NCBI GenBank assembly: GCA_963701965.1
Contig: OY969695.1
Span: forward strand, 1,984,001-2,048,000
Length of the DNA stretch: 64,000 nucleotides
From: an uncultured Gemmatimonadales bacterium
GTDB lineage: Bacteria; Gemmatimonadota; Gemmatimonadetes; Gemmatimonadales; Gemmatimonadaceae
Direction of reading: 5' to 3'
Part shown: positions 1 through 59,056 of the stretch, piece by piece
Numbering within the stretch: the first letter of the stretch is position 1
How the letters are laid out: each line of letters opens with the position of its first letter
The notes under the pieces: model-generated
Database searches by the model: none
Told to the model about the DNA's origin: nothing
Seen by the model: the letters and a program-made list of their open reading frames with translations, nothing else
Position numbers and translations under genes: made by a program

Positions 1-318
1 GACTCGGCGGCGTCCACGAACCGGCTCAATGCGTTCGTGAACGGCCTCACGCCGTATGTGCAGGACGCGACGTTCCTCAAGCTGCGTAACGTCTCGTTGA
101 GCTACACGTTGCCCAAGGTCACGTACGGCTGGGCGCACGGGAAAATCGCCAGCGCCAAGCTGATTGCCAGCGGTTACAACTTGTTCAGCTGGTTCAAGTT
201 CCCGGGACTCGATCCTGAAGTCAGCGTCAACGGAAATCAGACAGTCACACGAGGGCAAGACATCACCCCATATCCGCCGGCCCGAAGCTACTTCCTCGGC
301 ATCGACCTGGGGCTCTGA
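1..318 (+). CDS. SusC/RagA-family TonB-dependent outer-membrane transporter, C-terminal fragment (runs off the window start)
   Basis: Frame open from base 1. C-terminal motifs YVQDATFLKLRNVSLSY, NLFSWFKFPGLDPEV and PYPPARSYFLGIDLGL match the ends of the other two SusC-like proteins here. Followed directly by a SusD-like lipoprotein. Confidence 0.93.
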   Translation, partial: DSAASTNRLNAFVNGLTPYVQDATFLKLRNVSLSYTLPKVTYGWAHGKIASAKLIASGYNLFSWFKFPGLDPEVSVNGNQTVTRGQDITPYPPARSYFLGIDLGL

Positions 319-320
319 TC

Positions 321-1886
321 ATGACACATACGAAACTGCGCGCCTCTTTCCTGGCGCTTGCGGCAGCCGCGGTAGCCTTCACGGCTTGCTCGGATACGAA
401 CGTCCCATTCTTCACCGCTCCGACCAGCGTGCCGAGCACGCCGCCGGGCGTGCAGAACGGCATGACCGGCTTGTTCGCCGGCTCGCGGAACGATGTCCAG
501 AGCTTCATTCTGGACATGACCGGGTACGGACGCCAAGGCGCCAACTTCACCAACACCGAGCCGCGGTTCATCACGTATGACCTCGGTGTCGTCCCGATTC
601 CGTCGCAGAGCGGCACGATCTGGACGAACGCGTTCGCCAATATCCTGCAGGCGCATCAGATCCTCGCGACACTGCCGTCGGTGATTCCGGCATATACGCC
701 GGCGCAGATCTCGGCGCTGACGGGCGTCGTGCAGACCATGATCGCCTACAACTACATGCACATGCAGATCGACCACGACTCCGGTGGTGGCACGATCCAG
801 CCGGCCACGACGGCGGCGAACACGCCGCTGCCCGCGGCGCTCTGCAATCAGGACATGTGGAAGTACATCGTGGCGTTGCTCGACTCGGGGAACGCCCAGC
901 TCAACACCGCTGGTGCCACGCCGATTCCCGTGAAGTTGCCGAACGGCTTCTCCGCGGTGAGTCAGGTTGCTGGACCCAGCACTGCCGCTGGCTCGTTCGC
1001 CGCGTTCAACCGGGCGCTTGCCGGTAAGGCGAACTTCGAGTTGGCGTACGCGCTCGCTCGTGGCCCTGGTGGCTCGGCCCCAACGGCGACCACGCCGGGG
1101 AGCCCCAACGTCGCGGCCCTGACCCGCGCGGATAGTGCGCTCACCAACTCGGCGCTCTACGCGCCGGGCGCCCTGGCGGCTGGACCTGCCGGGAGTTGGG
1201 CGGCCGATGCGCATAGCGTATTCTGGGACTTTTCCGCGACGTCGGGCGATCTCGTGAACCCGATGAATGCGCTGGTCGGAACGTATGTAATGCTCAAAGA
1301 ATTTGTCACGCTCGTCGACACGGCTGACCTGCGGTGGAAAGCGAAGTTCGCGCCGTACCCCGCGACGGTTCAGCAGCCGACGTACGCGCCGGTGGCGGTG
1401 CAGGTGTCCTATGCCATGTACGACCAACCGGGCAGCCTTATCCCGATCGTGCGGAACGAGGGCCTCGTCCTATGGCGTGCCCAGATTCAGCTCGGGCTGG
1501 GGAACTTGGCCACGGCCGCGGCCCTGACCGACCAGGTCCGTACCACGGTTGGTGGGGAGCCAGCGGGAACGACCGGGCCCACCACGGTCAGGAACTCGCT
1601 CGGAACCACGGTCACCTTCGCCAAAGTCGACCCGACCAGCTACACGTCGGTGCGCGACTACATCATGAGGGAACAGCAGGTCTCGACGGCGATCGAGGAT
1701 AACGGCGACCGGACGGCGGCGATTCGCGACTACCGGTTGGAGCTCGTCGCCGATACGACGTGGGATTCGTCGAACCCGACGATCAAGAAAGCAGCACCAA
1801 ACGGCGACCAGCACACGACCGTTGACCCCATCCCGTTCGCCGAGCTCTCGGCGCGCGGCGGAGCGTTTAACAAAACCTGCCCGTAA
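321..1886 (+). CDS. SusD/RagB-family surface lipoprotein (cassette 1)
   Basis: Lipobox AVAFTAC; PIVRNEGLVLWRAQ motif like the PIIRNEEL motif of the other SusDs; immediately downstream of susC. Confidence 0.88.
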   Translation: MTHTKLRASFLALAAAAVAFTACSDTNVPFFTAPTSVPSTPPGVQNGMTGLFAGSRNDVQSFILDMTGYGRQGANFTNTEPRFITYDLGVVPIPSQSGTIWTNAFANILQAHQILATLPSVIPAYTPAQISALTGVVQTMIAYNYMHMQIDHDSGGGTIQPATTAANTPLPAALCNQDMWKYIVALLDSGNAQLNTAGATPIPVKLPNGFSAVSQVAGPSTAAGSFAAFNRALAGKANFELAYALARGPGGSAPTATTPGSPNVAALTRADSALTNSALYAPGALAAGPAGSWAADAHSVFWDFSATSGDLVNPMNALVGTYVMLKEFVTLVDTADLRWKAKFAPYPATVQQPTYAPVAVQVSYAMYDQPGSLIPIVRNEGLVLWRAQIQLGLGNLATAAALTDQVRTTVGGEPAGTTGPTTVRNSLGTTVTFAKVDPTSYTSVRDYIMREQQVSTAIEDNGDRTAAIRDYRLELVADTTWDSSNPTIKKAAPNGDQHTTVDPIPFAELSARGGAFNKTCP

Positions 1887-1893
1887 TGCAATT

Positions 1894-2504
1894 GTGGGCA
1901 GGTTGCGGAATGCCCTAACCGTAGTAGGCGTGGCGTGCGCGGCCCTCTGGGCCGCGCCGCCCGCCGAGGCGCATAACGCGGCCCGCATAACGCGGCCTCG
2001 CATAACGCGGCCTCGCATAACGCGGCCTCGCATAACGCGGCCTCGCATAGCGCTGGATCCGAGGGGCGCGCGTGTCGCCCGCCGCTGTACAAGATCGACC
2101 TCCTCCCCCTCGATGAATCGGTCGCCGGCAAGGGTGTCGCCAGCATAGAGCCCGCCGTGACCCCGTTCGGGATGGCCCTGACCCCCGACGGACATGTGAT
2201 CTACGACGTCCACATCTCGCTCTCCAACCTGCCGCCGGCCTCCGAGTTGGGCGGCGCCGAATACGTTGCGTGGGTGACCTCGCCGGATCTCGACCGCGCC
2301 GAGCGGTTGAGCCCCATCGGCCACGATGGCACGGCGCAGGGACGCGTGACGATGAACAAGTTCATCATCTTGGTCACCGCCGAGCACACGCCGGTCGGGG
2401 CCCATTGGACCGGCCGCGTCGCGCTGCGCGGGTTCTCGCCAAGCACCTTTCTGCAGAACTTCTCCAGCGAAGAACTGTTCCTGGGCGGCACACCGCCATG
2501 CTGA
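1894..2504 (+). CDS. Small secreted RskA-C-like protein with N-terminal HNAAS repeats; frameshifted at ~1984
   Basis: GTG at 1894 opens a signal peptide (VGRLRNALTVVGVACAALWAAPPAEA). After a 1-nt shift the frame reads (HNAAS)n-HSAGSEGRACRPPLYKIDLLP... into ORF 2157..2504, which is clearly paralogous to 13548..14030. Stop overlaps the MCO start. Confidence 0.75.
1971..2053 (+). repeat. 15-bp tandem repeat GCATAACGCGGCCTC (one 14-nt unit, four perfect units, one partial unit)
   Basis: Read directly: units at 1971 (14 nt), 1985, 2000, 2015, 2030 and a partial at 2045. Confidence 0.97.
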
Positions 2505-4168
2505 GGCGCCTGTTGGCGATCGCATGGCTGCTGCCGATCGCCGTTCGGGCGCAACAGATGTCCGGCATGGACATGTCCGGTATGGATATGTCGGGCGACA
2601 CCGCGGCCGACCGCGCGCCGCCGATGCCCAAGGGCATGCCGATGATGCCGGGCATGGTCGGGAAAGGTCCGAGCATCGTCCAGTATCTGCCGGCCGACGC
2701 CGCCAGCATCAAAGCCGCCGTCCCGAGCACCGTGGTGACGGTCGCCAACGGCGACACGTTCAACCTAGACGCCAGCCTCGTCCGCCGAACGATCAACGGT
2801 CGCACGTTCGTCATGTACGGGTTCAACGGACAGTACCCGGGTCCGATGATCCGGGTGAAACAGCAGTCCACGATCACCGTGCGGTTCACCAATCACTTGG
2901 ACATGCCGTCGTCCGTGCACTGGCATGGCATTCGGTTGGACAACCAGTACGACGGCGCCGTCGGCGTCACGCAGGACGCGGTCCCACCCGGCGGGACCTT
3001 TGTCTACACGGTCCGGTTTCCGGATGCGGGTTTGTACTGGTACCACCCCCACGTGCGGGAGGACATCGAGCAGAATCTCGGATTGTACGGGAACCTGCTC
3101 GTCGACTCGCCGGATGCCAACTATTACAACCCCGTCAATGCCGAGCGCGCGCTCATCCTGAGCGATCTCTTGATCGACAAGAAGGGGCTTTTCCCGTACG
3201 GGAAGGACACGCCCGACTTCACGATCATGGGGCGCTTCGGAAACGTGATGCTGGTCAACGGCGAGCCACGGTACGCGCTCACGGCACACAAAGGAGACGT
3301 CGTGCGGCTCATGCTGACCGACGTGTCCAGCACGCGGAGCTACAACCTGAGTCTAGGCGGGGCCAAGCTCAAGCTCGTCGCCGCCGACGTCAGCCGCTAC
3401 GAGCACGAACAGATGGTCGACAACGTGACCATCGTGCCCGCGGAGCGCTACGTCGTGGATGCCAAGTTCGACAGCGCGGGCACCTTCGCGTTGACCAATC
3501 GCGTGCAGGCGCTGAACAACTTCTTGGGCGAGTACTCACCCGAGATCGACACGCTGGCGATCGTGACTGTCGATCCGACTCCGTCGGCGACGAGTTACGC
3601 CAAGGAGTTCGCGACGCTCCGGACCAACGCCGACGTCGCGTCCGAGATCGCGCGGTTCAAGGAGGCTTTCACCAAGGCGCCGGACAAGGAACTGGAGCTC
3701 ACGGTCAACATCCAGGGGCTGCCGACGCCGATCGTGGCGCTGATGGCCATCGACACGTCGTACTACTCGCCCGTCGAGTGGAACGACGGCATGCCCGACA
3801 TGAATTGGGTGTCGACGGCCAAGCAAGTGCGGTGGATCATGCGCGACAAGGCCACCGGCAAGGAAGACATGGACATCGACTGGCACTTCAAGAAGGGCGA
3901 TATGGTGAAGATCCGGATCCATAACGACCCCCAGTCGATCCACCCCATGGGCCATCCCCTGCACTTCCACGGTCAGCGCTTTCTGATCATCTCCCGCAAC
4001 GGCATACCCAACCCGTATCTGGCCTGGAAGGATACCGAGCTCATTCCCGTCGGGGAGACCGTCGACATCCTGCTCGACGCGTCGAACCCCGGGCGCTGGA
4101 TGGCGCACTGCCACATTGCCGAGCATCTCGAGGCCGGCATGCACCTCGTGTTCACCGTGGATCCATAG
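2498..4168 (+). CDS. Three-domain multicopper oxidase with Met-rich N-terminus (MCO1)
   Basis: All four Cu-ligand motifs present: HWHG, WYHPH, HPLHFHG, HCHIAEHLEAGM. Signal peptide followed by QMSGMDMSGMDMSG...PPMPKGMPMMPGM. ATG at 2498 overlaps the upstream stop. Confidence 0.95.
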   Translation: MLRRLLAIAWLLPIAVRAQQMSGMDMSGMDMSGDTAADRAPPMPKGMPMMPGMVGKGPSIVQYLPADAASIKAAVPSTVVTVANGDTFNLDASLVRRTINGRTFVMYGFNGQYPGPMIRVKQQSTITVRFTNHLDMPSSVHWHGIRLDNQYDGAVGVTQDAVPPGGTFVYTVRFPDAGLYWYHPHVREDIEQNLGLYGNLLVDSPDANYYNPVNAERALILSDLLIDKKGLFPYGKDTPDFTIMGRFGNVMLVNGEPRYALTAHKGDVVRLMLTDVSSTRSYNLSLGGAKLKLVAADVSRYEHEQMVDNVTIVPAERYVVDAKFDSAGTFALTNRVQALNNFLGEYSPEIDTLAIVTVDPTPSATSYAKEFATLRTNADVASEIARFKEAFTKAPDKELELTVNIQGLPTPIVALMAIDTSYYSPVEWNDGMPDMNWVSTAKQVRWIMRDKATGKEDMDIDWHFKKGDMVKIRIHNDPQSIHPMGHPLHFHGQRFLIISRNGIPNPYLAWKDTELIPVGETVDILLDASNPGRWMAHCHIAEHLEAGMHLVFTVDP

Positions 4169-4184
4169 GAGGAGGTCGCTACTG

Positions 4185-5585
4185 ATGCACAAACGTGTTC
4201 TGATCGCAGCCGCGCTCGTGCCTGTGCTCGCCCTGGCCCAACAAGGTCAGGGGGCGCCCGGCGTGTTGCCCAACGTCAAGAGTGGAGGGAGCACCAATAT
4301 CCATCTCTTGGGTCACGTCCCGTTGGGCGGGTTTTTCCGCGTCATGGACGATGAGATCGAACAGGACCCAGGCCGGCCCTACGCCTACGTATCGCAGGCG
4401 CACGATCGGCCGGGCTTCACGATCATGGACCTGCACGATCTGAATCACATCCACGTCCTGTACAACTGGCGCATCGAGAACGCCGACCTGCACAAAGGAC
4501 TCGGCGGCATGGACGGCAAGTACTTCAAGATCAAGGGCAAGTACTACTACGAGCAGTCTCTGCAGTTCATGCAGGGTGGTCCTGACGCCGATCTCGGCGC
4601 GGTCATCGCCGACGTCACGGGTCTGCCCGACACCAACAAGATCAAGATCGTGGCGCGGCTCCGTGAACCGGACCACCCGGGCGGCTTCCACAATACGTTC
4701 GTCTACAAGCACTCCGACGGGCGCGTCCTCCTGTTCAATACGTTGAACGCGCCGTTCGTCGAGATCTGGGATTTGGAAAAAGTTCTGGCGTCACCCGATA
4801 ACCCGAAGGCCGGTCTGATTGGACAGGTGCCGGTCCCCGGGGGAGAATCGAACGACCGCATGGGCCGCTACGGCTACCATGACTTCTATCTGGGTTACGA
4901 TCCCGCGACCCACCAGGACAAGTTCTACGGCGCGGGACGCGGTGGGTACTACATCTTCGACGTGACCGATCCCACGCAGCCCAAGCTCCTGACGTCGATC
5001 ACGGGTTCGGCGGGTATCGAGTTCGGTCACACGTTCACGCCGACGCCCGACGGCAAGTACGCGGTCGCCGAGACCGAGTACGAGTACGCGCCGCTCCGCA
5101 TCTTCGATCTGCAGCCGGGCTTGAGCGGTCAGGTGCAGGCCATCACGCGGCCAATCGGCGCCTGGACGGCCGACTGGCACGATCTCGCGCACAACCACGA
5201 GATCCGCTGGCCCTACGTGTTCGTCTCCGCGTACGAAGATGGGCTCCAGATCTTCAATATGATCGATCCCAAGAACCCGGTGACGGTCGGCTGGTACTAC
5301 ACCTGCCAGTGCGCCCATGAGACCGGCTTTGGCGGGATCCCGGCCTGGAACGGCACCAGCGTCGAGAACGGCGCGTTCGGCATCGACATCCGGAACTACG
5401 ACGGCGTGATCATGATCAGCGATGCCAACACCGGGGTATGGTTCTTCAAGTTGGATGGCTTCGACGGATGGAACGGCACCGACTGGGGGATGCCGAACAT
5501 CTCGAGCGTGCAGGACTACGATCACGGACCACCGGGCGCCAGCGGGCAGAAGAAAATGGCGCAGGCCACGCCCGGCGTACAGTAA
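4185..5585 (+). CDS. Secreted LVIVD-repeat-like beta-propeller protein (cassette 1)
   Basis: Strong RBS AGGAGGAGG at 4167-4175; signal peptide; blade-like repeats (YYIFDVTDPTQPKLLTSI, YVFVSAYEDGLQIFNMIDPKNPVTVGWY); paralog of 15714..17120. Confidence 0.75.
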   Translation: MHKRVLIAAALVPVLALAQQGQGAPGVLPNVKSGGSTNIHLLGHVPLGGFFRVMDDEIEQDPGRPYAYVSQAHDRPGFTIMDLHDLNHIHVLYNWRIENADLHKGLGGMDGKYFKIKGKYYYEQSLQFMQGGPDADLGAVIADVTGLPDTNKIKIVARLREPDHPGGFHNTFVYKHSDGRVLLFNTLNAPFVEIWDLEKVLASPDNPKAGLIGQVPVPGGESNDRMGRYGYHDFYLGYDPATHQDKFYGAGRGGYYIFDVTDPTQPKLLTSITGSAGIEFGHTFTPTPDGKYAVAETEYEYAPLRIFDLQPGLSGQVQAITRPIGAWTADWHDLAHNHEIRWPYVFVSAYEDGLQIFNMIDPKNPVTVGWYYTCQCAHETGFGGIPAWNGTSVENGAFGIDIRNYDGVIMISDANTGVWFFKLDGFDGWNGTDWGMPNISSVQDYDHGPPGASGQKKMAQATPGVQ

Positions 5586-5602
5586 CAGGGCTGCTGGGCA
5601 GG

Positions 5603-5638
5603 ACAACGGGCGGCAGAGGGTACTCTGCCGCCCGTTGT
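5603..5638 (+). terminator. Perfect 16-bp stem-loop (ACAACGGGCGGCAGAG-GGTA-CTCTGCCGCCCGTTGT); terminator or mRNA-stabilising hairpin
   Basis: Inverted repeat read directly, 17 nt after the LVIVD1 stop; weak U-tract. Confidence 0.6.
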
Positions 5639-5670
5639 GCATCGCGGCACCGTCGCGTTACTTCGACGCC

Positions 5671-7743
5671 ATGCGCGGGCGACTCGCTCGTACTCTGTTG
5701 CTGGTCATCGCCGTCGCCTGGGCCGCCACGGCGCGTGGTCAGGTGTGCGATGCCGGCGACCGCGCGCTCGCCGCGAGCCGCGACCTTTATTGCCTCACGC
5801 TCGTTCCCGCCGCCGGCTTCGACGGCGCGCGCGGACACGTGGAGCTGGGGCGGATCGCCGGACCGTTCACGGTCGCCGTCACCGCCGACGGCAACCCGCT
5901 CTACGAACCGGTCATCACCATCACCGGCCTCTCGCCCACCGCGCGGTACGAAGCCTGGGTTTCACCGCCGACCATGTACCCCATGGAGAGCCTCGGCGCG
6001 GTGACGAACGGCCGCACCAGCCTGCGGCGCGTGGGTATCGACCCATTCGTCCTGCTGGTCAAAGAGGTGCCGAGCGGCCGTCTCGTGCTCCGCGGCCAGT
6101 CGCCCAGTTCGCGGCTCCAGCCCGCCGATTTTCTGCAGTTCGCGGTCGGCGCCGTACCCGACTCCACTCCGCCGCCGCCCGTTGATACCGCGGCGGTCCG
6201 CTGGACGACCGTGCCAATGTCTCCGGGGATCCCGATGCTGGCCGCCGAGATGGCGCTCCGCCCCTCGGTAGCCGCGACGCTCCCCCACCCGGAGGGCCCA
6301 GTGCCCAACGCCCGCCCGCACACGATCGTGCGCCTCGCCGACGGCGACACGTTGCATTTGCGCGCGGGTCTCGTGCACCGGACGATCCGCGGACGGCCCG
6401 CGGTCATGTACGCGTACAACGGTCAGATCCCCGGCCCGCTGATCGTTGTCCCCCAGGGGGCCGAGATCACGGTCGACTTCGCGAATCATCTCGATCAACC
6501 GACGAGCGTGCACTGGCATGGCGTCCGGCTGGACAACGCATCCGACGGCGTCCCGGGGTTGACCCAGCCGCCGATCGCGCCGGGTAGCCACTTCACGTAT
6601 CGCGTGCGGTTTCCCGACGCCGGGACCTACTGGTATCACCCGCACGTGCGCGAGGACACGCAGCAAGATCTCGGACTCTACGGCAACATCGTCGTCGAAC
6701 CGCGCGGCGGCGCGCTACTACCGCGCGAGCAGGTACTCATGCTCGATGACATCTCGGTGACGGCCGACGGCCTCGTGCCTTACGGACGCGACGCCGCGAC
6801 GCACGCGCTCATGGGTCGCTTTGGCAATGTCCTGCTCGTGAACGGGGAACCGGCCTATCATCTCACCGCTCGGCGCGGCGAGGTCGTGCAGTTCCGCCTC
6901 ACGAACGCCTCGAACACGCGCGTCTTCAATCTGTCATTTCCCGGCGCCCGCATGAAGGTCGTGGGCAGCGACGCGGGAATGTTCGAGCGCCCGGAATGGG
7001 TCGAAAGCGTCGTCATCGCGCCCGCCGAGCGGTACATCGTGCAAGTGCGGTTCGACACCCCCGGTCGTGTGCCGTTCGTCAACCGCGTGCGCTCGCTCGA
7101 TCATCTCTTTGGCCGCTTTCTCACGCTGGCCGACACCCTGGGCATCGTCCACGTGCGGTCACCGTCCGTGCCTCGTGACGCGGGCTTCGACCGGCTTGTC
7201 GCCGACCGTCGGATGACCGCCGACATCGAGCGCCTTCGGCCGTATTTCCAGCGGCTACCCGATCACACGCTGCTCCTGACGCTCGAGACCCACGATCTCC
7301 CCTTCGTCACCCGCCAGCTCATGCTGCTCGACTCTGTGTACTTCACGCCTGTGGAGTGGACGGAGAGCATGCCCAACATGAACTGGGCGGCGACCAGCGA
7401 TCAGGTACGCTGGGTGTTGCGCGACCCGGCAACCGGCCGGGAGAACATGGACATCGACTGGACCTTTCGCCGGGACACGGTCATCACGCTGCGGCTGGTC
7501 AACGACCGGAACACGCTCCATGGCATGCAGCACCCGATCCACATCCACGGCCAGCGCTTTCTCGTCCTCGCCGTGAATGGCGTGCCCAATACGAACCTGG
7601 TGTGGAAAGACACCGTCCTGGTGCCGGCGGGAGCGGCCGTGGACATCCTGCTCGACTTGTCCAACCCCGGCCAATGGATGATCCACTGCCACATCGCCGA
7701 GCACCTGACCGCCCAGATGATGGCCGCCTTCACGGTGGAGTGA
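5671..7743 (+). CDS. Multicopper oxidase with fused N-terminal RskA-C-like domain (MCO2)
   Basis: Motifs HWHG, WYHPH, HPIHIHG, HCHIAEHLTAQM. Signal peptide. The N-terminal ~130 aa align by eye with the small proteins at 1894..2504 and 13548..14030. Confidence 0.93.
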   Translation: MRGRLARTLLLVIAVAWAATARGQVCDAGDRALAASRDLYCLTLVPAAGFDGARGHVELGRIAGPFTVAVTADGNPLYEPVITITGLSPTARYEAWVSPPTMYPMESLGAVTNGRTSLRRVGIDPFVLLVKEVPSGRLVLRGQSPSSRLQPADFLQFAVGAVPDSTPPPPVDTAAVRWTTVPMSPGIPMLAAEMALRPSVAATLPHPEGPVPNARPHTIVRLADGDTLHLRAGLVHRTIRGRPAVMYAYNGQIPGPLIVVPQGAEITVDFANHLDQPTSVHWHGVRLDNASDGVPGLTQPPIAPGSHFTYRVRFPDAGTYWYHPHVREDTQQDLGLYGNIVVEPRGGALLPREQVLMLDDISVTADGLVPYGRDAATHALMGRFGNVLLVNGEPAYHLTARRGEVVQFRLTNASNTRVFNLSFPGARMKVVGSDAGMFERPEWVESVVIAPAERYIVQVRFDTPGRVPFVNRVRSLDHLFGRFLTLADTLGIVHVRSPSVPRDAGFDRLVADRRMTADIERLRPYFQRLPDHTLLLTLETHDLPFVTRQLMLLDSVYFTPVEWTESMPNMNWAATSDQVRWVLRDPATGRENMDIDWTFRRDTVITLRLVNDRNTLHGMQHPIHIHGQRFLVLAVNGVPNTNLVWKDTVLVPAGAAVDILLDLSNPGQWMIHCHIAEHLTAQMMAAFTVE

Positions 7744-7785
7744 TTACGTTTCGCGTACGACCGCCCATACCCGAGGAGAGCTCCT

Positions 7786-8958: not shown

Positions 8959-8997
8959 CGTTCAAGCGCGGTCCCTAGCGTTCAAAAACAGAAACGG

Positions 8998-9037
8998 AAC
9001 AGGCGGCAGAGCGAACTCTGCCGCCTGTTTTGTTTTC
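8998..9037 (+). terminator. Intrinsic, probably bidirectional terminator (AACAGGCGGCAGAG-CGAA-CTCTGCCGCCTGTT followed by a T-tract)
   Basis: 14-bp stem with downstream TTGTTTT and an upstream A-rich tract, after the oxdC stop. Confidence 0.85.
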
Positions 9038-9075
9038 GTCTTGGTTCAGATGTAGGGTCGCCTTGCCCTGTTTGA

Positions 9076-9130
9076 TTGACATCGCATCTCATTTCTGTTA
9101 TGGCTGCCGGCGTAACGTTTCAGTACTGAA
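9076..9130 (+). promoter_or_regulatory. Putative sigma70 promoter for cassette 2 with a downstream palindrome
   Basis: TTGACA at 9076-9081, 17-nt spacer, TGnTATGGC at 9096-9104; perfect palindrome TTCAGTACTGAA at 9119-9130. Confidence 0.5.
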
Positions 9131-9219
9131 GCGTCGGTCATCCACCCCGTACTCCTTGGACGAGGGGCGCGCTTTGTCGTGCCCCTTGCCCAAGAACATC
9201 CGACTGGGGCAAACGCGAA

Positions 9220-12168
9220 ATGCGATTCTCTCGTGCGCTCGTGCTGTTCGGCGCTTTCGCCGTCCTTCCCGCCGTAGCCCGCGCCCAAGGGCGCGTCATC
9301 GGCGGTCGTGTGACGGACGGCGAGAGCGGGCAACCGCTCTCTGACGTGCAGGTGGTCATCAAGGGCACCCAGATCGGCGCCCATACCCACGACGACGGAC
9401 AGTACGTTCTCCCAACGCAGACCGGCGCCGTGACGTTGACGTTCCGGCGGATCGGATACAAAGCGGCCGAGCTCGCCGTCGCCGCCACGGAGACGAGCGC
9501 CAACGTCGCGCTCACCCGCGACGTGCTCAAGCTCGAAGAAACGATCGTCACCGGTGAGGCGACGAACGTCACCCGGCGGAACGCCGCCAACGCCGTAGCG
9601 ACCGTGTCGGCGGATCAGCTGTCGCAAGTGCAGGCCCAGACTCTCGATCAACAGCTCGCGGGCAAGGTCGCCGGCGCGGACATTCAGCAGAACTCCGGCG
9701 CGCCCGGCGGCGGCCTTCAGGTCAGGCTCCGCGGCGCCTCCACCATCATCGGCCAGTTCGATCCGCTCTACGTGATCGACGGGATCATCGTCAGCAACAA
9801 CGCGATTCCGCCGGGCACGAACGCGATTACGCAGGCGGCGAGCGCCAGCGGCATCTCGTCGAACGAGGACAACCCGACGAGCCGCATCGCCGATATCGAC
9901 CCCAATGACATCGAGAACATCGAAATCCTGAAGGGGCCGTCCGCCGCCGCGATCTACGGATCCAAAGCCGCCAACGGCGTCGTGCTCATCACGACGAAAC
10001 GGGGCCGGGCGGGCAAGACCCGCATCAACATCGCGCAACGGTTCGGATTCAGCGCACTGTCGCACGAACTGGGTTCCCGGACGTTCGACTCCACGGGCGC
10101 CATTGCCCAGTTCGGGTCGGCGGTCGCGCCACTCTTCCACTCTGGTGTCACCTACAACCACGACGAGGAATTGGCCGGTCACAAGCCGCTGTCCTACCAG
10201 ACGACGGCCAACATCGGCGGCGGCACGGACGCCACCAAATACTACGCCTCCGGCATCAACGAGTACGACGGCGGCATCATCGACAACACGTACTTCCGGA
10301 AGCAGTCCGTATCGGGCTCGCTCGACCAATCGATCGGCAGCAAGGTCCAAGTCGGGTTCAACACCTCGTTGATGCACACCGCGGCGGGGCGCGGGCTCAC
10401 GAACAACGACAACGTGACGGCATCCTTCTACACCGCGATGGCCGGCATCCCGAGTTTCTTGAATCTGCAGGCCAATAACAACGGGCAGTTCCCCAACAAT
10501 CCCCTGGGGCCCAGCAATCCGTTGCAGACCGCCGCCCTGCTGCACAATGACGAGGGGGTCTACCACGGCTTCGGCGCGTTCCGCGGCACGTGGCATGTGC
10601 TGGAACAGCGCAGCAACTCCCTGGACCTGACCACCACGGCCGGCGTCGACTACTTCCAGCAGCAGAATTCGGTCTACGCGCCACCGTCGCTGCAGTTCGA
10701 GCAATCCTCGCCCCCGCCGGGCGTGAGCGTGCTCACGAACTCGAACAACCTGAATACCAACGTCAATCTCAACCTGATCGACCGGTTCACGCCTGGCGGA
10801 TTCTCGGCGACGACATCGTTCGGGGTCGAGCAAGAGACGCGGACGCTGAACGTCGCCGCCACCGCGGCCCGCGGGTTGAGCGGGACGCTCACCAGCGTGT
10901 CGAGTGGCACGTCGGTGGCCGTGCAACAAGCCCGCGAAGACGTCGTCGACCAGGGCGTGTTCTTGCAGGAGGAGTTCTTGACCTTGGCGGATCGGCTCCT
11001 GCTGACGGCGGGTGCGCGCGCCGATCGCAGCAGCAACAACGCCAATACGAGTCACTTGTATGTCTATCCCAAGGCCGCGGCGTCCTATCGGCTGCCGACT
11101 CAGACGTCGTTCTTGGACGAGATCAAGTTCCGCGCGGCCGTCGGCGCCTCGGGCAACGAGCCCCAATACGGCCAGAAGTTTGGCGAGCTGGTGACGGCCA
11201 ATCTCGCGGGGCTGCCCACGCAACAGGTCAAGGGTTCGATCGCCGCGCCCGACCTCCGGCCTGAGCGCTCGTTCGAGATCGAAGGAGGTTTCGACGCGAC
11301 GCTGTTCCACGGCCGGGCGACGCTGGGCGTGACGGGCTATCAAAAGCGCACCACGGATCTCCTGCTCTCGCGCGCTCTGGCTCCCTCGTTCGGAGACACC
11401 ACCGAGTACTTCAACGCCGGCGTCATGCGGACCCGCGGCATCGAGGTCGAGGCGTCCGTGATCGCCGCCCAGGGACGGAATCTCAACTGGACCATCACCA
11501 GCACGTTCTCCAAGCAGGCAGCACTCATCGTCGAACTGCCCGTGCCGTCGTTCAGCCCTGGTGGCTTCCCGACGGAGTTCGGCACGTTCATGATCGAACA
11601 GGGGGCGTCGCCGACGCAGATTGTCGGGAACGTGACGCTAGCGAATGGCACGCTCACCACGGGGAAGATCGGCGACGCCAACCCGGACTACCGCGTGTCC
11701 CTGGCCAACAACGTCACGTTCCGGCAACTCCACCTGTCATTCCTGTTCGATGCCTCGAAGGGTCAGGACGTCGATAACCTGACCGAGCTGCTGTACGACT
11801 TCGGCGGCAACACGAAGGACTACGCCGACCTGATCACGGTAGGCGGCAAGCAGGTCATGAAGGGGGTGTATCGGCTCACCCAATGGCCCACGAATACCTC
11901 GGTGTACGTGCAGGATGCCTCGTATATCAAGCTGCGCGAGATCAACATCTCCTACGACCTGCCGACGTACATGCTGTCGCCGTTCGGCCGGGGACTGCAT
12001 TCCGCCTCGCTCAGCTTCTCCGTGCGGAATCTCTTCACGCTGACGCACTATCAGGGCATGGACCCCGAGGTCTCGAACTTCGGCAACCAAGCCATCTCGC
12101 GAAACGTGGACGTCGCGCCATTCCCTCCGAGCCGCACCTTCTGGTTCGGCATCAACCTGGGGCTCTGA
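9220..12168 (+). CDS. SusC/RagA-family TonB-dependent outer-membrane transporter (cassette 2)
   Basis: Signal peptide, carboxypeptidase-regulatory-like N-domain, plug motifs PLYVIDG and [34 protein letters not shown]-terminal DPEV...PPSRTFWFGINLGL. Confidence 0.96.
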   Translation: MRFSRALVLFGAFAVLPAVARAQGRVIGGRVTDGESGQPLSDVQVVIKGTQIGAHTHDDGQYVLPTQTGAVTLTFRRIGYKAAELAVAATETSANVALTRDVLKLEETIVTGEATNVTRRNAANAVATVSADQLSQVQAQTLDQQLAGKVAGADIQQNSGAPGGGLQVRLRGASTIIGQFDPLYVIDGIIVSNNAIPPGTNAITQAASASGISSNEDNPTSRIADIDPNDIENIEILKGPSAAAIYGSKAANGVVLITTKRGRAGKTRINIAQRFGFSALSHELGSRTFDSTGAIAQFGSAVAPLFHSGVTYNHDEELAGHKPLSYQTTANIGGGTDATKYYASGINEYDGGIIDNTYFRKQSVSGSLDQSIGSKVQVGFNTSLMHTAAGRGLTNNDNVTASFYTAMAGIPSFLNLQANNNGQFPNNPLGPSNPLQTAALLHNDEGVYHGFGAFRGTWHVLEQRSNSLDLTTTAGVDYFQQQNSVYAPPSLQFEQSSPPPGVSVLTNSNNLNTNVNLNLIDRFTPGGFSATTSFGVEQETRTLNVAATAARGLSGTLTSVSSGTSVAVQQAREDVVDQGVFLQEEFLTLADRLLLTAGARADRSSNNANTSHLYVYPKAAASYRLPTQTSFLDEIKFRAAVGASGNEPQYGQKFGELVTANLAGLPTQQVKGSIAAPDLRPERSFEIEGGFDATLFHGRATLGVTGYQKRTTDLLLSRALAPSFGDTTEYFNAGVMRTRGIEVEASVIAAQGRNLNWTITSTFSKQAALIVELPVPSFSPGGFPTEFGTFMIEQGASPTQIVGNVTLANGTLTTGKIGDANPDYRVSLANNVTFRQLHLSFLFDASKGQDVDNLTELLYDFGGNTKDYADLITVGGKQVMKGVYRLTQWPTNTSVYVQDASYIKLREINISYDLPTYMLSPFGRGLHSASLSFSVRNLFTLTHYQGMDPEVSNFGNQAISRNVDVAPFPPSRTFWFGINLGL

Positions 12169-12171
12169 ACC

Positions 12172-13548
12172 ATGACGATGCGTCGAATTGCGCTCTGTGG
12201 CATGGTGGTCGCGCTCGCGGCGTGCCGTGATACGACCGTGCCCGATCTCAACAGCGGCAGTGTCAGCGGATTCGAGACGAATCCGACTGCAGATGGCGCC
12301 AACGCCCTCGCCGTCGGTCTCATTCGCGGCGCACGGGACAACAATGCGCTCATCGTCTCGACGATCGGCCCGTTTGGTCGCGAGGGCTACGAGCTGAATC
12401 TGGCTCGCGGCGACCTGCCCGACTACATCATCGGCCCCCTCACACCGGGCACGTTCTACGTTGCCCAGCTCTGGATCGGGGAATACGCCGACCTGCGCTC
12501 GGCGGGCCTTCTCCTCGACAAGGTCGGCAGCATCAGCAACTTGTCGCCGGCGCAGCAGGAGGGGCTGAGGGGCTTTGCCCAGACGATGCAGGCCTACGAC
12601 CTCACGCTCCTGGCGGAGACGCGCGACACGCTAGGCCTGCCGATCGACGTGTACGTCGATCCGACGGGTACACCGGCGCCGGTCGCCACCAAGACGGTCG
12701 TGTACCAGCACATTCTCAATCTGCTCGATTCCGCGTCCACGCACCTGAATGCCGCGGGGAGCGGGTTCTCGATCTCGACGTTAGACCTTGACAAGGCGGG
12801 CTTTGCGGACTTCGACACGCCGAGCACGTTCCTCACGTTCAACCGCGCGCTCCGCGCGCGGGTTGATATTCTCACGAATCAGTATGCCGACGCACTGACC
12901 GACCTCTCCGCATCGTTTCTCACGACTGGTACCGGCTCCCTCAACATCGGTCCCGTGTTCGCGTTCTCGGCGAATTCCGGGGACGAACCGAACCCGCTGT
13001 TTTCACAGTTCCTGTATGCCGAGCCGGATCTCATCACCAACGCGCAGCGACAGGCCGGCGACACGGTGCGGGATGCGCGAATTCTGGCCAAGCTCATCCC
13101 CGCCGTGCAGTCCGCCACGTTGGACGGGGTGACGTCGGACCTCGCGTTCGCGGCCTACCAGAGCCTGGGCGCGCCGCTACCGATCATTCGGAATGAAGAG
13201 CTGATCCTCTTGCGCGCCGAGGCGAACATTGGCCTGGGCAACCTCGGTCCGGCGGTGACCGACCTCAATCTGATTCGCACGCAGTCGGGCGGTCTCGCTC
13301 CGCTCTCCGGAGCGGCGGCGGCCAGCGCCGATTCGCTGCTCGAAGACCTGCTCTACGAGAAACGATACTCGCTGCTGTGGGAGGGCGGACACAACTGGGT
13401 GGACATGCGCCACTATAGCAAGCTGGCCGAGATTCCCAAGGGGCAACTCGCGACCTCGAAGATCTTCACCGTGGTACCGTACCCGATCGAGGAATGCAAC
13501 GCGCGGGTACCGAAGCCCAAGGGCTGCACCAACGACGCAGGGTTGTAA
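12172..13548 (+). CDS. SusD/RagB-family surface lipoprotein (cassette 2)
   Basis: Lipobox VVALAAC; PIIRNEELILLRAEA and LLYEKRYSLLWEGGHNWVDMR motifs. Confidence 0.93.
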   Translation: MTMRRIALCGMVVALAACRDTTVPDLNSGSVSGFETNPTADGANALAVGLIRGARDNNALIVSTIGPFGREGYELNLARGDLPDYIIGPLTPGTFYVAQLWIGEYADLRSAGLLLDKVGSISNLSPAQQEGLRGFAQTMQAYDLTLLAETRDTLGLPIDVYVDPTGTPAPVATKTVVYQHILNLLDSASTHLNAAGSGFSISTLDLDKAGFADFDTPSTFLTFNRALRARVDILTNQYADALTDLSASFLTTGTGSLNIGPVFAFSANSGDEPNPLFSQFLYAEPDLITNAQRQAGDTVRDARILAKLIPAVQSATLDGVTSDLAFAAYQSLGAPLPIIRNEELILLRAEANIGLGNLGPAVTDLNLIRTQSGGLAPLSGAAAASADSLLEDLLYEKRYSLLWEGGHNWVDMRHYSKLAEIPKGQLATSKIFTVVPYPIEECNARVPKPKGCTNDAGL

Positions 13549-14030
13549 TGCTGGCGAAGGGCCGGATCCTGCTGACGCTGGGCGCGCTGTGGCTGGCGCG
13601 CCCAGCGATGTATGCGATTCCACTCATTGCGACGCCCACGGGGACGGGGGCGTCGGGAGTGGCGACGTTGTCGCGTCCCGAGTCGCCGTTCAGTGTCCCG
13701 GTGACGCGGGATGGGCACGTGATCTACAACGTGGCCATCACGGTCCAAGGACTGCCGCCGGCCAGCGCGTTCGACGGCGCGACGACCTACGTCGCCTGGG
13801 CGACCGTTCCCGACCTGTCGCTCGCCCGTAGCCTCGGCCCCATCACGGCCGACGGCAGGGCCAAGGGCCAAGTGGCCTGGAACAAGTTCATCGTGCTGGT
13901 CACGGCCGAAAAGACCGCGGGCGCGCATTGGACCGGACCCATCCTGCTCAAGGGCGTGAGCCCGAGCACGTGGATGCAACGGTTCCAGGCCCACGTCATC
14001 GGGAACGGCGGCAATCCCGACCCGCCATGA
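13548..14030 (+). CDS. Small secreted RskA-C-like protein (cassette 2)
   Basis: TAATG coupling to susD and ATGA coupling to the MCO. Shares DGHVIY, LPP..YVAW, NKFI(V/I)LVTAE, GAHWTG..L.G.SPST with the cassette-1 paralog. Confidence 0.85.
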   Translation: MLAKGRILLTLGALWLARPAMYAIPLIATPTGTGASGVATLSRPESPFSVPVTRDGHVIYNVAITVQGLPPASAFDGATTYVAWATVPDLSLARSLGPITADGRAKGQVAWNKFIVLVTAEKTAGAHWTGPILLKGVSPSTWMQRFQAHVIGNGGNPDPP

Positions 14031-15703
14031 GACGGGTCGTGATGCTCATGACGCTGCTCGCGGCCCGCGTGGGAGCGCAGGACACGTCCATGGCGGGCAT
14101 GCACATGAACATGGACATGCCGGGCATGGGTGGGCACCGGATGCCACCGATGCCCGCGGGCATGCCCATGATGTCCGGCATGGAGGGCGCGGCGCCGCAA
14201 GTAAAAGCATTTCTGCCCGGCGCCGGCGTCGATCCGGCGACCGTACCGGTCGCCCACGCCAGCAAGATCATAGAAGTCGCGAACGGCGACACGCTGGATC
14301 TCGACGCCGGCCTCGTCCGCCGCACGATCAACGGCGCGACCTATACAATGTACGCGTTCAACGGCCAATCTCCCGGACCGTTGATCCGCGTCAAGCAGAA
14401 CGCCACGATCGTCGTCCGGTTCACCAATCACATCGACCTGCCGTCCTCGATCCACTGGCACGGCGTGCGACTGGCCAATGCGTTCGACGGCAGCGTGGGC
14501 ATGACGCAGGCGGCCGTCGCTCCCGGCGGACGCTTCATCTACCAAGTGCACTTCCCCGACGCGGGCCTCTACTGGTACCACTCCCACGTCCGCGAAGATA
14601 TCGAGCAAGGCCTTGGGCTCTTTGGCAACATTAGAGTCGATTCGCCGGACCCGCAGTACTACAGCGCCGTGAACACCGAGTCCACGCTCATCCTGAACGA
14701 CATCCTCGTGGATCCGCACGGGCTCATTCCCTATGGTGGCGAGGCGTCGGACTTCTCCATCATGGGCCGCTTCGGGAATCTGCTGCTGGTGAACGGCGAG
14801 CCCCGCTATCATCTGGCCGTCCACAAAGGCGACGTCGTGCGGTTCTTCCTCACCAACGCCTCCAACGCCCGGAGCTACAACATCGATTTCGGCGGCGCGA
14901 CCCTCAAGGTCGTCGGCACCGACGTCAGCCGCTACGAGCGGGAGATCCCCGTGACCAGCGTCGTCATCGCCCCTGCGCAACGGTTCATCGTCGAGGCGCG
15001 GTTCGACACGGCGGGCCGCTTCGTGCTGGCCAACCGCGTCCAAGCCGTCTCCAATTTCACGGGCGAATACGCGACCGAAGTCGACACGCTGGGGACGATC
15101 GAAGTGTCCCCGCAACCGACGGCGGTGGACCACGGGAAACAGTTCGCCACCCTGCGCGCGTACCCGGAGGTCTCCCACGACATCGATCGCTTCCGTGCCC
15201 AGTTCACCAAACCCGTGGATCACGAGCTCACGCTCACCGTCAACATTCAAGGCCTGCCGCACGATCTCGTGGCGTTCATGGCGATCGACACCATGTACTT
15301 CAACCCCGTGGAGTGGAACGACGGGATGCCCGACATGAATTGGGTGTCCACGGGCAAGGAAGTCCACTGGATCCTGCGCGACGCCGCGACGGGCAAGGAG
15401 AACCTGGACATCGACTGGCACATGCACGCGGGCGACGTCGTGAAGATCCGGCTCCACAACGACGAACGCTCGATGCACCCAATGGCGCACCCGATCCACT
15501 TTCACGGCCAGCGTTTTCTCGTGCTGTCCCGGGATGGCGTGGCGAATACCGACTTGGCCTGGCAGGACACGGAGCTCGTCCCGGTCGGCTCGACCGAGGA
15601 CATCCTGCTGGATGCGTCCAACCCGGGCGTCTGGATGGCCCACTGTCACATCGCGGAACATCTCGACGCCGGTATGCAAATGCGGTTTACCGTCGACCCT
15701 TAG
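14027..15703 (+). CDS. Three-domain multicopper oxidase with Met-rich N-terminus (MCO3)
   Basis: HWHG, WYHSH, HPIHFHG, HCHIAEHLDAGM; N-terminal SMAGMHMNMDMPGMGGHRMPPMPAGMPMMSGM; close paralog of MCO1. Confidence 0.95.
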   Translation: MRRVVMLMTLLAARVGAQDTSMAGMHMNMDMPGMGGHRMPPMPAGMPMMSGMEGAAPQVKAFLPGAGVDPATVPVAHASKIIEVANGDTLDLDAGLVRRTINGATYTMYAFNGQSPGPLIRVKQNATIVVRFTNHIDLPSSIHWHGVRLANAFDGSVGMTQAAVAPGGRFIYQVHFPDAGLYWYHSHVREDIEQGLGLFGNIRVDSPDPQYYSAVNTESTLILNDILVDPHGLIPYGGEASDFSIMGRFGNLLLVNGEPRYHLAVHKGDVVRFFLTNASNARSYNIDFGGATLKVVGTDVSRYEREIPVTSVVIAPAQRFIVEARFDTAGRFVLANRVQAVSNFTGEYATEVDTLGTIEVSPQPTAVDHGKQFATLRAYPEVSHDIDRFRAQFTKPVDHELTLTVNIQGLPHDLVAFMAIDTMYFNPVEWNDGMPDMNWVSTGKEVHWILRDAATGKENLDIDWHMHAGDVVKIRLHNDERSMHPMAHPIHFHGQRFLVLSRDGVANTDLAWQDTELVPVGSTEDILLDASNPGVWMAHCHIAEHLDAGMQMRFTVDP

Positions 15704-15713
15704 GAGATCTCTG

Positions 15714-17120
15714 ATGCTGCGAACGACCGTCTTTCTGCTGGCCGTGAGTGCCGCTGCCGCTGCGGCGCAGGACCCGGCACCGTCTCAACCCCCGAAGCTC
15801 GACAAAGTCGGCGGCAGCCCCAACGTGCACCTGCTGTCGCACGTCCCCCTCGGCGGCTACTTCCGCGTGGCCGACGCGGACCTGGAGCAGGAGATGTCGC
15901 GCCCCTACGCCTACGTCGGACAGATCCGCGACCGCCCCGGCTTCACGATTCTCGATATCAAAGATCCATCGAACGCCAAAGTCCTGTACAAGTGGAAGAT
16001 CGAAAATGCCGATCTCCACCAGGGGGACGGCGGCCTCCGCGCCAAGTACTTCAAGCTCAAAGGACGCTACTACGTCGCCGTCTGCTATCAGTTCCTCCAG
16101 GGCTCACCGGACACCGACCTCGGCGCCATCATCTACGACGTGACGGGTCTGCCGGACACGAGCAAGATCAAGGTCGTCGCCCGGATCACCGCGCCCTCCA
16201 CGCCCGGTGGCTTCCACAATCTCTTCATGTACAAGCACTCCGATGGCCGGGTGCTGATGTTCACCACGACCACGACGAGCCAAGCCAACATCTACGACAT
16301 GGAGAAGACAATCGCCGGCGACAAGGACTTCGGATTCATCGGCACGGTCCCAATTCCCCAAGGATCCGCCCACAAAGAAGTCCTGCCGGGCTTCGCGCAG
16401 GGACAGATCGCGATCTCGGGCTACCACGATTTCTACGTGGGCTTCGATCCGGCCACGCGGCAGGACAAGTTCTATGGCGCTGGCGCGGGCGGCTACTACG
16501 TCTACGATGTCACCCACACCGATCAGATCAAGCTGGTCACCTCGGTGGTCGGCTCGGCTGGGGTAGGCTGGGGCCACACCTTCACGCCGACGCCCGATGG
16601 CGCGTTCGCTATCACCGAGACCGAGTATCAGTGGGCGCCACTGCGTATCTACGACCTGCGTCCCGGGTTGGAGGGGAAAGTCCAGGCCGTCACGCAACCC
16701 GTGTCGGTGTGGAACGCCGACTGGAACGACCTCGCCCACAACCACGAAGTCCGCTGGCCGTACGTGTTCGTCTCCGCCTACGAGGATGGTCTCCAGATCT
16801 TCAACATGCAGGATCCGGCGCACCCGAAGACCATCGGCTGGTACTACACATGCGAATGCCAGCACGAGACCGGGTTCGGCGGCCTGCCGCAGTGGACCGG
16901 CAAGAGCATCTATAATGGCGCCTTCGGCATCATGGTGCGGAATGCCGATGGCCTCATCATGATCACCGACTCCAACACCGGCGCCTGGTTCTTCAAGCTC
17001 GACGGGTTCAGTGGCTGGAATGGCGACGACTGGGGCATGCCCAACATCTCCAGCGCGCAGGACTGGGATCACGGCCCGCCGGGATCGGCGGCCCATAAAG
17101 TCGCCACCGCTACCAAGTAA
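15714..17120 (+). CDS. Secreted LVIVD-repeat-like beta-propeller protein (cassette 2)
   Basis: RBS AGGAG; signal peptide; long near-identical blocks with 4185..5585 (HNHEVRWPYVFVSAYEDGLQIFNM, DWGMPNISS). Confidence 0.75.
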   Translation: MLRTTVFLLAVSAAAAAAQDPAPSQPPKLDKVGGSPNVHLLSHVPLGGYFRVADADLEQEMSRPYAYVGQIRDRPGFTILDIKDPSNAKVLYKWKIENADLHQGDGGLRAKYFKLKGRYYVAVCYQFLQGSPDTDLGAIIYDVTGLPDTSKIKVVARITAPSTPGGFHNLFMYKHSDGRVLMFTTTTTSQANIYDMEKTIAGDKDFGFIGTVPIPQGSAHKEVLPGFAQGQIAISGYHDFYVGFDPATRQDKFYGAGAGGYYVYDVTHTDQIKLVTSVVGSAGVGWGHTFTPTPDGAFAITETEYQWAPLRIYDLRPGLEGKVQAVTQPVSVWNADWNDLAHNHEVRWPYVFVSAYEDGLQIFNMQDPAHPKTIGWYYTCECQHETGFGGLPQWTGKSIYNGAFGIMVRNADGLIMITDSNTGAWFFKLDGFSGWNGDDWGMPNISSAQDWDHGPPGSAAHKVATATK

Positions 17121-35062: not shown

Positions 35063-35102
35063 TTATTGGCACGGACGCATGACGGGGAATAATACTTCCC
35101 AC

Positions 35103-54877: not shown

Positions 54878-54915
54878 TCGCTAAATTGCAGGACACTCCG
54901 GAGGAGAGCCGATTC

Positions 54916-59054: not shown

Positions 59055-59056
59055 GG

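Follow-up and report, generated by a model that had tools for sequence, protein, structure and literature searches.

This report concerns a 64,000-nucleotide window (positions 1,984,001 to 2,048,000 of contig OY969695.1, assembly GCA_963701965.1) from the genome of an uncultured Gemmatimonadales bacterium, which is a single contig of 5.12 Mb. The window carries two runs of five genes encoding a SusC-type transporter, a SusD-like lipoprotein, a small protein, a multicopper oxidase (MCO) and a propeller protein. We refer to the small gene ahead of the MCO as X and to the propeller gene as LV, number the genes by run (X1, X2 and so on), and use the residue numbering of alignment A4 for the MCO and of alignment A2 for LV. 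The conserved unit in these runs is X plus the MCO, and a SusC/SusD importer is attached to it only in some lineages. This core is nearly always encoded beside a likely metal-dependent hydrolase, either the propeller or an amidohydrolase. It is highly probable that the module is built as an oxidase on which a small partner, X, with the fold of superoxide dismutase (SOD), is predicted to dock. The reading that we tentatively prefer is that X-MCO oxidizes Cu(I) from a metal-organic complex and that the metallohydrolase partner breaks down the organic part.

X is present in 220 of 401 genomes of the phylum, a tally that counts the source genome and one unpublished genome (G157). Gene neighborhoods were compared in the best 80 of 174 GTDB loci, ranked by likeness to X2, so that close relatives are favored. 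An MCO lies directly downstream of X in 78 of these 80 loci, as a separate gene in 65 and fused to X in 13. Beside the separate genes LV is adjacent in 61 of 65 loci and an amidohydrolase is directly downstream in none; LV is adjacent in none of the 13 fused loci, 12 of which have an amidohydrolase within 3 kb, in 10 cases directly downstream. In 40 further regions, about ten of which overlap the first set, there were 20 fused forms (amidohydrolase in 18, LV in none) and 23 separate ones (LV in 18, amidohydrolase in one). A metagenome search that started from the MCO determined that X is upstream in 56 of the 73 loci with room for it, that is, in 56 of the 64 whose identity is at least 44% and in 0 of 9 below that value. 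Among the 58 X-positive metagenome loci, 41 are fused (31 with amidohydrolase, none with LV) and 17 are separate (16 with LV, none with amidohydrolase). Additionally, 90 of 93 longer X-containing proteins have an MCO Pfam domain, and the other three resemble broken or chimeric fusions. One apparent fusion of X to an amidohydrolase, P0071, appears collapsed or chimeric and was not used.

In a FastTree phylogeny of 110 MCO sequences the fused forms make up one clade (support 0.987) and two deep branches, so the dichotomy between LV and amidohydrolase goes back to few events. The module is self-contained, as the genes flanking it are very variable (316 genes fall into 248 clusters). Carriers of related loci are nearly all Gemmatimonadota, with a few Rhodothermales, Rubrivirga, Balneolaceae and Vicinamibacterales; Rubrivirga sp. 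IMCC43871, a named isolate with a complete genome, has the order LV-LV-X-MCO (locus L085) and is a possible experimental handle. No plasmid match was found for X or LV. Elsewhere in the source genome the module occurs as FecR-susC-susD-LV-X-MCO-LV at 1.73 Mb, as LV-X-MCO at 470 kb (this module, at 470-474 kb, is badly split) and as a fused X-MCO with an amidohydrolase at 675 kb, and a lone LV lies at 4.69 Mb. Three other observations were made around such loci. Near one fused X-MCO an exported-looking protein (L004:5566-6759, minus strand) has two His-pair motifs, which we take to resemble those of copper monooxygenases, and no Pfam match at 1e-5. In two locus groups (L036, L038, L069, L082) the module is repeatedly preceded by a DsbD/CcdA membrane protein and a split AhpC/TSA redoxin. 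In genome G127 (L194, L129-L131) arrays of several LV and amidohydrolase paralogues surround SusC/SusD pairs, with and without X-MCO.

The original prediction had described the runs as a conserved module headed by SusC/SusD, and this is not borne out by the survey. Of the 65 separate loci, 14 have SusD within 6.5 kb upstream, 9 of them directly so; it is upstream in none of the 13 fused loci and in none of the 58 X-positive metagenome loci, many of which are on short contigs. Thirteen of the 14 SusD-linked loci fall in one MCO clade (support 0.989), which holds MCO1 and MCO2 as sister subgroups, and one falls in its sister group. When 20 loci were chosen by similarity to SusD2 alone, X-MCO was found in one, LV in three and an esterase in five. 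The prediction that the gene order is conserved in other genomes holds in part: the order is kept in four of five same-genus genomes, in each case as the order of copy 2, and in one genome of another family (L184), with SusC/SusD outside the conserved core. Variants include copy-2 cassettes with an inserted esterase (L039-L043), copy-1-like cassettes lacking LV (L045-L047 and L049) and looser SusC/SusD neighbors (L102, L124, L130 and L149). The X loci searched in four same-genus genomes, whose assemblies are fragmented, include no such tandem, which is local to the source genome among the genomes examined.

As had been predicted, the two copies are diverged and both appear to have been maintained. 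The divergence is uneven, with identities of 37% for SusC, 27% for SusD, 49% for X (taken over the X1 domain at 2064-2501, which is 54-56% identical to type-1 relatives), 63% for MCO and 63% for LV, and a rough dN/dS of 0.26 for MCO and 0.23 for LV indicates purifying selection at a dS near saturation. The uneven divergence, together with the placement of SusC1 and SusC2 in different clades, led us to reject duplication of a whole five-gene cassette. The source genome has 22 SusC genes; susC1 falls in an expanded SusC clade that is mostly without the module, as are most SusC1 paralogues in the tree, which omits one split SusC. The tree had suggested that some SusCs form a subfamily dedicated to the module, but its SusCs from other genomes were all module-adjacent; this idea was rejected on the search from SusD, which gave one of 20. 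The simplest reading is that X-MCO joined SusC/SusD-hydrolase loci in one lineage and was paired there with two different importers. A close paralogue pair of susC1 and susD1 (65% and 52% identity; L001:1349-5816) lies 14 kb upstream and has no module behind it.

The framing of the locus as a polysaccharide utilization locus (PUL) with oxidases instead of hydrolases is valid in its first half for one lineage only and is unsupported in its second. The adjacent susC-susD pairs were confirmed, SusC2 by a score above the TIGR04056 cut-off, SusD2 by Pfam, and the pair of copy 1 by homology. The 15 proteins of 321-22260 gave no match to a glycoside hydrolase or lyase family. The absence of hydrolases does not follow: the gene run of copy 2 includes a probable metallohydrolase (LV, which is metalloenzyme-like) as well as the esterase and the peptidase behind it, and beside fused X-MCO genes an amidohydrolase replaces LV. 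The exported esterase has seven paralogues in the source genome and adjoins SusD2-like genes more often than the MCO does.

The X2 protein gives a confident model (pLDDT 88.9) with a predicted SOD-like barrel. The top 12 VIA-align rows are all SOD or CCS, the best being a loop-less SOD1 (Z 9.5, rmsd 3.0, 102 residues), by a modest margin as unrelated rows start at Z 7.0. No barrel His is more than 51% conserved, one tail His is present in 51 of 71 members, and the barrel has no strongly conserved Cys or His. X was rejected as a Cu/Zn SOD on these grounds: the barrel fold is there and the conserved His/Asp ligands are absent. The label RskA-like, given to X in the original prediction, is weak as judged by Pfam, which finds RskA_C in 2 of 71 members with a best E of 0.006, and what stands of it are Atlas neighbors named RskA_C (35% of one cluster, 0.83), to be read as a lead only, beside others named YoqH (PF26349; 20% of one cluster, 0.94), and one X fusion with a precomputed PF10099 annotation. 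A role as an RskA-type anti-sigma factor was rejected, as X2 has 160 residues with a signal-like stretch at its N-terminus only and lies between SusD or LV and the MCO; no linked sigma factor or membrane anchor was seen. Homology to P19/FetP (Foldseek TM 0.30-0.38) and to YacC (probability 0.2%) was likewise rejected, and a profile match of X to a surface-layer propeller is due to a short repeated motif and was ignored.

Complex prediction places X on the MCO beside the type 1 (T1) copper site. The pair scored 0.93 and the best control 0.00, the runs share at least 65% of contacts, and the partner pLDDT is at least 85. Of 157 solved complexes 116 reached the 0.93 mark, as did 2 of 215 mismatched pairs; these counts are only rough with the alignments used here, and halves of split genes tend to pass such predictions. 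No solved MCO with an X-like partner was found. On the side of X the predicted interface consists of its most conserved residues (28-41 and 95-96). On the side of the MCO it covers residues 232-297, 369-377, 427-434 and 449-471, on the face of domains 2 and 3 by the T1 ligand His435, with 427-428 and 434 next to this His. In MCOs of a sister group that lack X, a 10-residue interface loop (~288-297) is missing in 14 of 14. Measured against a consensus built from X-positive sequences, the identity of the X-less MCOs (n=14) is 0.33 in the interface and 0.65 elsewhere, as compared with 0.72 and 0.79 in X-positive MCOs (n=20). The X-less sister family (L255, L260-L276; 38-46% identity) mostly retains the His/Met motif beside T1 that is described below.

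The ten His, the Cys and the axial Met of the copper sites are invariant in 68 of 68 MCOs, which have three cupredoxin domains. His431 and Met433 align with D439 and M441 of CueO, where M355, D360, D439 and M441 are the ligands of the cuprous-oxidation site Cu5 and a double mutant is without cuprous oxidase activity, according to an excerpt of PMC11494321. Met381 and Met384 are invariant and lie within the equivalent insertion. All 76 separate MCOs have at least four Met in the 45 residues ahead of the core, with a median of eight. Because the copper ligands, two of the Cu(I)-site positions of CueO and the Met-rich tails are kept, Cu(I) oxidation appears, tentatively, to be the likeliest MCO chemistry, and that the chemistry concerns a copper chelate is put forward at the same tentative level. 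The three MCOs of the window do not belong to the known copper families by score: they reach 147, 123 and 170 bits against a cut-off of 525 for the CueO family NF008205, and 126-166 bits against a cut-off of 479 for the CopA/PcoA family TIGR01480. The least likely of the alternatives that we considered is oxidation of Fe(II) or Mn(II) by an MCO that has an accessory subunit, like Mnx or ferroxidase-based uptake. MCOs with accessory subunits do oxidize Mn (excerpt of PMC5622069), and E376 is invariant and D368 near-invariant, both near the T1 face; however, the Met-rich tails favor Cu(I), the flanks show no recurring iron permease or P19-type gene, and X is a poor match to P19/FetP.

The partner of the separate X-MCO, LV, was modeled as a seven-bladed propeller (pLDDT 88.7). 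Its earlier label, LVIVD, holds by fold and by Atlas clusters of that name (0.95-0.99) and fails by Pfam, where the LVIVD family was found in only 4 of 57 members. H24, H83, H149, H156, H219, H269, H323, H325 and H365 are conserved in 54-57 of 57 LVs, and the set H149, H219, H269, E285, H323 and H325 is kept in 56 of 57, the sole exception having lost all six. Four conserved His open the inner strands of successive blades, from which we infer a putative axial metal site; the His-ringed propeller is probably a new metalloenzyme. The only PDB matches of the LV profile are to Sb-PTE (E 0.03 and 0.06), a binuclear propeller hydrolase. Foldseek ranks Sb-PTE fourth among generic propellers (E 1.4e-11, TM 0.58, 12% identity). 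LV1 has the usual Met89-Asp90, and Leu-Arg stands there in LV2 and four other aligned LVs, three of them in SusC2-type cassettes of other genomes and one at the 1.73-Mb locus of the source genome; this difference in sequence hints that the two copies differ in function. LV is found without X-MCO at L005, L178 and L194. At L053:5843-7282 a second LV copy without any conserved His/Glu, likely a pseudo-enzyme, lies beside an intact LV. The amidohydrolases, which partner the fused X-MCO forms and of which there is none in the window, retain the HxH, Lys, His, His and Asp motifs in 31, 29, 28, 27 and 30 of 31 sequences and belong to Pfam Amidohydro_1.

It is very unlikely that the oxidase serves to mature its neighbor, with LV itself a copper (or Fe/Mn) enzyme and X-MCO setting the oxidation state of, or delivering, the metal for LV or the amidohydrolase, while X acts like the SOD-fold docking domain of CCS. 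The conserved His of LV exceed what a binuclear hydrolase needs, X resembles SOD and domain II of CCS (Z 9.5-7.0), and a bicupin that we take to be of the Mn-dependent type is encoded behind X-MCO3, the fused gene between the two runs. Against these points, the conserved face of X is taken by the MCO in the model, LV occurs without X-MCO, and amidohydrolases normally use divalent metals without an oxidase.

In our preferred reading of Cu(I) oxidation followed by ligand breakdown, the Met-rich tails would gather Cu(I) and hand it over to the His/Met site next to T1, X would narrow access so that the metal is oxidized rather than bulky phenolics, and LV or the amidohydrolase would hydrolyze the freed ligand. 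In the source lineage, the SusC/SusD pairs, which also travel with esterases and propellers, would deliver the cargo. Its most specific form is a periplasmic "strip and digest" machine in which Cu(I) is pulled from an imported metallophore or metal-peptide by a copper oxidase of two subunits, one of them a metal-free SOD-fold gate, the ligand is destroyed by an interchangeable metallohydrolase, and one soil lineage has wired the system to SusC/SusD, so that the locus would serve to utilize metal-organic complexes. This full form is speculative and rather unlikely.

A number of observations weigh against the preferred reading. The alignment gives no match for M355 and D360 of CueO. The fused MCOs are poorer in Met, with at least four in 17 of 28. 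The His/Met motif is not special to the module, because the X-less sister MCOs have it too, and these sisters probably form one lineage. The split between LV and amidohydrolase tracks the MCO tree and therefore represents one or two events and not many. SusC and SusD are without enrichment in Met or His. Sb-PTE is outside the top 50 on realignment of LV, so its likeness to LV is weak and the link suggestive only. Finally, the scan of the flanks (140 of 248 clusters, long proteins cut to 330 aa, E<=1e-25) found no copper-transport or copper-regulator family in the 140 proteins, unlike cue/cop loci.

The last of these points bears on two alternatives. Plain periplasmic copper detoxification, in which a CueO-like cuprous oxidase guards the neighboring metallohydrolases from mis-metallation and the SusC/SusD link is incidental, is unlikely. 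It would account for the CueO-like features, and it agrees with the number of SusC genes in the source genome and the lack of SusC/SusD at most module loci; however, single genomes hold up to seven X matches, there are two fixed partner types, the scanned flanks have no Cu efflux or regulator genes, and the scores are far below the CueO and CopA cut-offs. In favor of the preferred reading, a CopM/DUF305 gene lies near four module loci and near one more in the source genome. In L003:6200-12900 CopM/DUF305, a choice-of-anchor-B-like LVIVD protein, LV, X and MCO form one heavily frameshifted run, and the DUF305-LVIVD pair recurs near four module loci besides L003. A P-type ATPase with an HMA domain (62441-64000) lies 45 kb from the module.

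The same lack of copper genes is in favor of a two-step organic catabolism, which corresponds to the second option of the original prediction with the hydrolases restored and which we regard as doubtful, although it is the strongest of the alternatives. Here X-MCO would oxidize a small imported organic molecule (an aromatic amine, a phenolic or a modified peptide), X would confer specificity or act as a dirigent subunit, and the product would be hydrolyzed by LV or the amidohydrolase. A fungal MCO reportedly has a non-catalytic dirigent partner. The partners of X-MCO are hydrolase-type, the best PDB matches of the amidohydrolase being carboxypeptidases, prolidases and amide hydrolases, and copy 2 continues into genes for an esterase and an S9 peptidase. 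The SusD2-like loci have the esterase or LV more often than X-MCO, the LV2-type proteins of SusC2 cassettes have an altered site residue, and the LVIVD protein CadB1 adjoins an FAD oxidoreductase in a chloranilic-acid degradation cluster (excerpt of PMC13191619). These points are countered by the Met-rich tails of the separate MCOs and the invariant His/Met by T1, which are metal-oxidase features, by the predicted covering of the T1 face by X, and by the flanks, in which no ring-cleavage or other pathway gene recurs among the 248 clusters.

The features of the window are listed in Table 1. The predicted order susC-susD-X-MCO-propeller is found twice, and the overlaps on which tight coupling had been proposed are present (TAATG at both susD/X joints, ATGCTGA at X1/MCO1 and ATGA at X2/MCO2). 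The run of copy 2 extends further, with the esterase after a 7-nt gap and the S9 peptidase overlapping the esterase by 11 nt. SusC1 as a whole has 999 aa, with its start upstream of the window.

Table 1. Coordinates of the two gene runs and the features between and behind them, as positions in the window.
Feature	Position	Strand	Description
susC1 3' end	1..318	+	TonB-dependent SusC/RagA-type transporter, C-terminal 105 codons
susD1	321..1886	+	SusD-like lipoprotein, 521 aa; lipobox by eye; no Pfam match
X1	1886..2504	+	Small MCO-partner gene, frameshifted as assembled
15-nt tandem repeat	1970..2053	+	5.7 copies within X1; unit adds one His in the frame of the domain
MCO1	2498..4168	+	Three-domain multicopper oxidase, 556 aa; Met-rich N-terminal tail; Pfam Cu-oxidase_3/_1/_2
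LV1	4185..5585	+	Predicted seven-bladed His-ringed propeller, 466 aa; family M89-D90 retained
Hairpin copy 1	5609..5632		GC-rich
X-MCO3	5671..7743	+	X domain and MCO as one polypeptide, 690 aa
Bicupin	7786..8958	+	Oxalate-decarboxylase family, TIGR03404 367 bits (cut-off 254); twin-Arg-like signal
Hairpin copy 2	9002..9025	+	Terminator-like
susC2	9220..12168	+	982 aa; TIGR04056 459 bits (cut-off 368)
susD2	12172..13548	+	Lipoprotein, 458 aa; Pfam SusD_RagB E 6e-7
X2	13548..14030	+	Intact MCO partner, 160 aa; predicted SOD-like beta-barrel without SOD metal ligands
MCO2	14027..15703	+	558 aa; complete set of T1/T2/T3 ligands; Met-rich tail; His/Met at two of the Cu5 positions of CueO
LV2	15714..17120	+	Propeller, 468 aa; L-R in place of M89-D90
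Esterase	17128..18867	+	Exported, putative (PF00756); conserved beside type-2 cassettes
S9 peptidase	18857..20785	+	With PD40 propeller

One of the ten genes in the two five-gene runs, X1, is broken as assembled. The frame of the ATG at 1886 stays open for 10 codons; a stretch resembling a signal peptide (1894-1971) is in another frame, and the conserved domain (2064-2504), which lies behind the 15-nt tandem repeat, is in a third. The original prediction had assigned export signals to all four proteins after SusC in each copy; by our own assessment, made by eye, this fails for X1 because its frames are broken. An assembly error is plausible because the genome holds other split genes, crudely in 13 of 127 probed loci, some of which are probably query artefacts, and among the susC/susD paralogues too. 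One DNA run was listed, with a share of 0.09, and none of its listed pieces spans 1886-2060; no RNA data set was listed. The repeat would add a His-repeat tail to X1, and the type-1 relatives are without it.

The 3.6 kb between the copies hold X-MCO3 and the bicupin, both absent from the original prediction. The X part of X-MCO3 is 31% identical to X1 and X2 and its MCO part 50-53% identical to MCO1 and MCO2, and in the tree it clusters with the fused, amidohydrolase-linked MCO clade. The neighbor behind a fused X-MCO is usually an amidohydrolase; here the bicupin takes that spot. Its family label is absent from every other module locus examined, and it is probably a passenger. The 24-nt hairpin has two copies only in the whole genome, which bracket the insert of X-MCO3 and bicupin, and its extended stem shows a paired change; the hairpin pair may mark the route by which the insert arrived. 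A promoter scan performed at chance (3 found and 3.0 expected). Farther away in the window are another susC/susD pair (57613-62051, minus strand), with frameshifts that split both genes, which lies upstream of a flavin oxidoreductase; a gene for a Rieske oxygenase (54853-56040, plus strand) that is convergent with this pair; and a DUF411 protein at 35037-35504, far from the module.

Gemmatimonadota are abundant and poorly studied bacteria of soils and sediments, whose MCOs are commonly annotated as generic laccases. An entire MCO subfamily is here accompanied by a partner that belongs to no assigned family. If this partner caps the substrate face as predicted, an MCO expressed alone would be a misleading enzyme, and genome counts of "laccases" would overstate lignin-degrading potential. 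X gains a concrete and testable role, LV is flagged for study as an enzyme, and the module allows one to test directly if metal-organic cargo can be served by SusC/SusD importers.

The module can be compared with several known systems. CueO is also a three-domain MCO with an axial Met and a Met-rich region, and the module has Met at the position of M441 and His at that of D439; in contrast to CueO, the Met-rich part of the module is N-terminal, there is an obligate partner protein and a hydrolase-like neighbor, and no clear Tat motif is seen by eye. In the Mnx system of Bacillus sp. PL-12 an MCO (MnxG) is complexed with small accessory proteins (MnxE and MnxF; excerpt of PMC5622069). Mnx is set apart by its description as a complex of ~200 kDa with two accessory proteins, whereas the module has a single SOD-fold partner, often fused, and a three-domain MCO of 556 aa. 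The iodide oxidase of Iodidimonas likewise joins an MCO (IoxA) to a partner of unknown function (IoxC) in a conserved cluster; by the description in an excerpt of PMC9415286, it differs in that IoxC has 71 kDa and the cluster contains SCO1/SenC genes, whereas X has 16 kDa and no SCO family was found among the 140 of 248 flanking clusters scanned. In the cutFOG operon of Rhodobacter capsulatus a small gene is required for the MCO (excerpt of PMC8456105); as described there, CutF has a putative Cu-binding motif needed for maturation, whereas X is predicted to be a bound subunit.

For LV the nearest relative proposed is Sb-PTE of Sphingobium sp. TCM1 (PDB 5hrm), also a seven-bladed propeller, with a binuclear metal centre by a title cited in PMC11656708, but generic WD40 propellers score equally well or better against LV. 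The runs resemble SusC/SusD PULs in that tandem susC-susD genes are followed by tightly coupled genes for exported enzymes; they differ in their enzymes, which comprise an oxidase, an esterase and a peptidase, and in that the SusC/SusD link is limited to a lineage. The original prediction knew of no described system with this architecture, and our search of the open-access literature found no match. X-MCO is apparently an undescribed envelope system, and a variant of the systems in which an MCO works with an accessory subunit.

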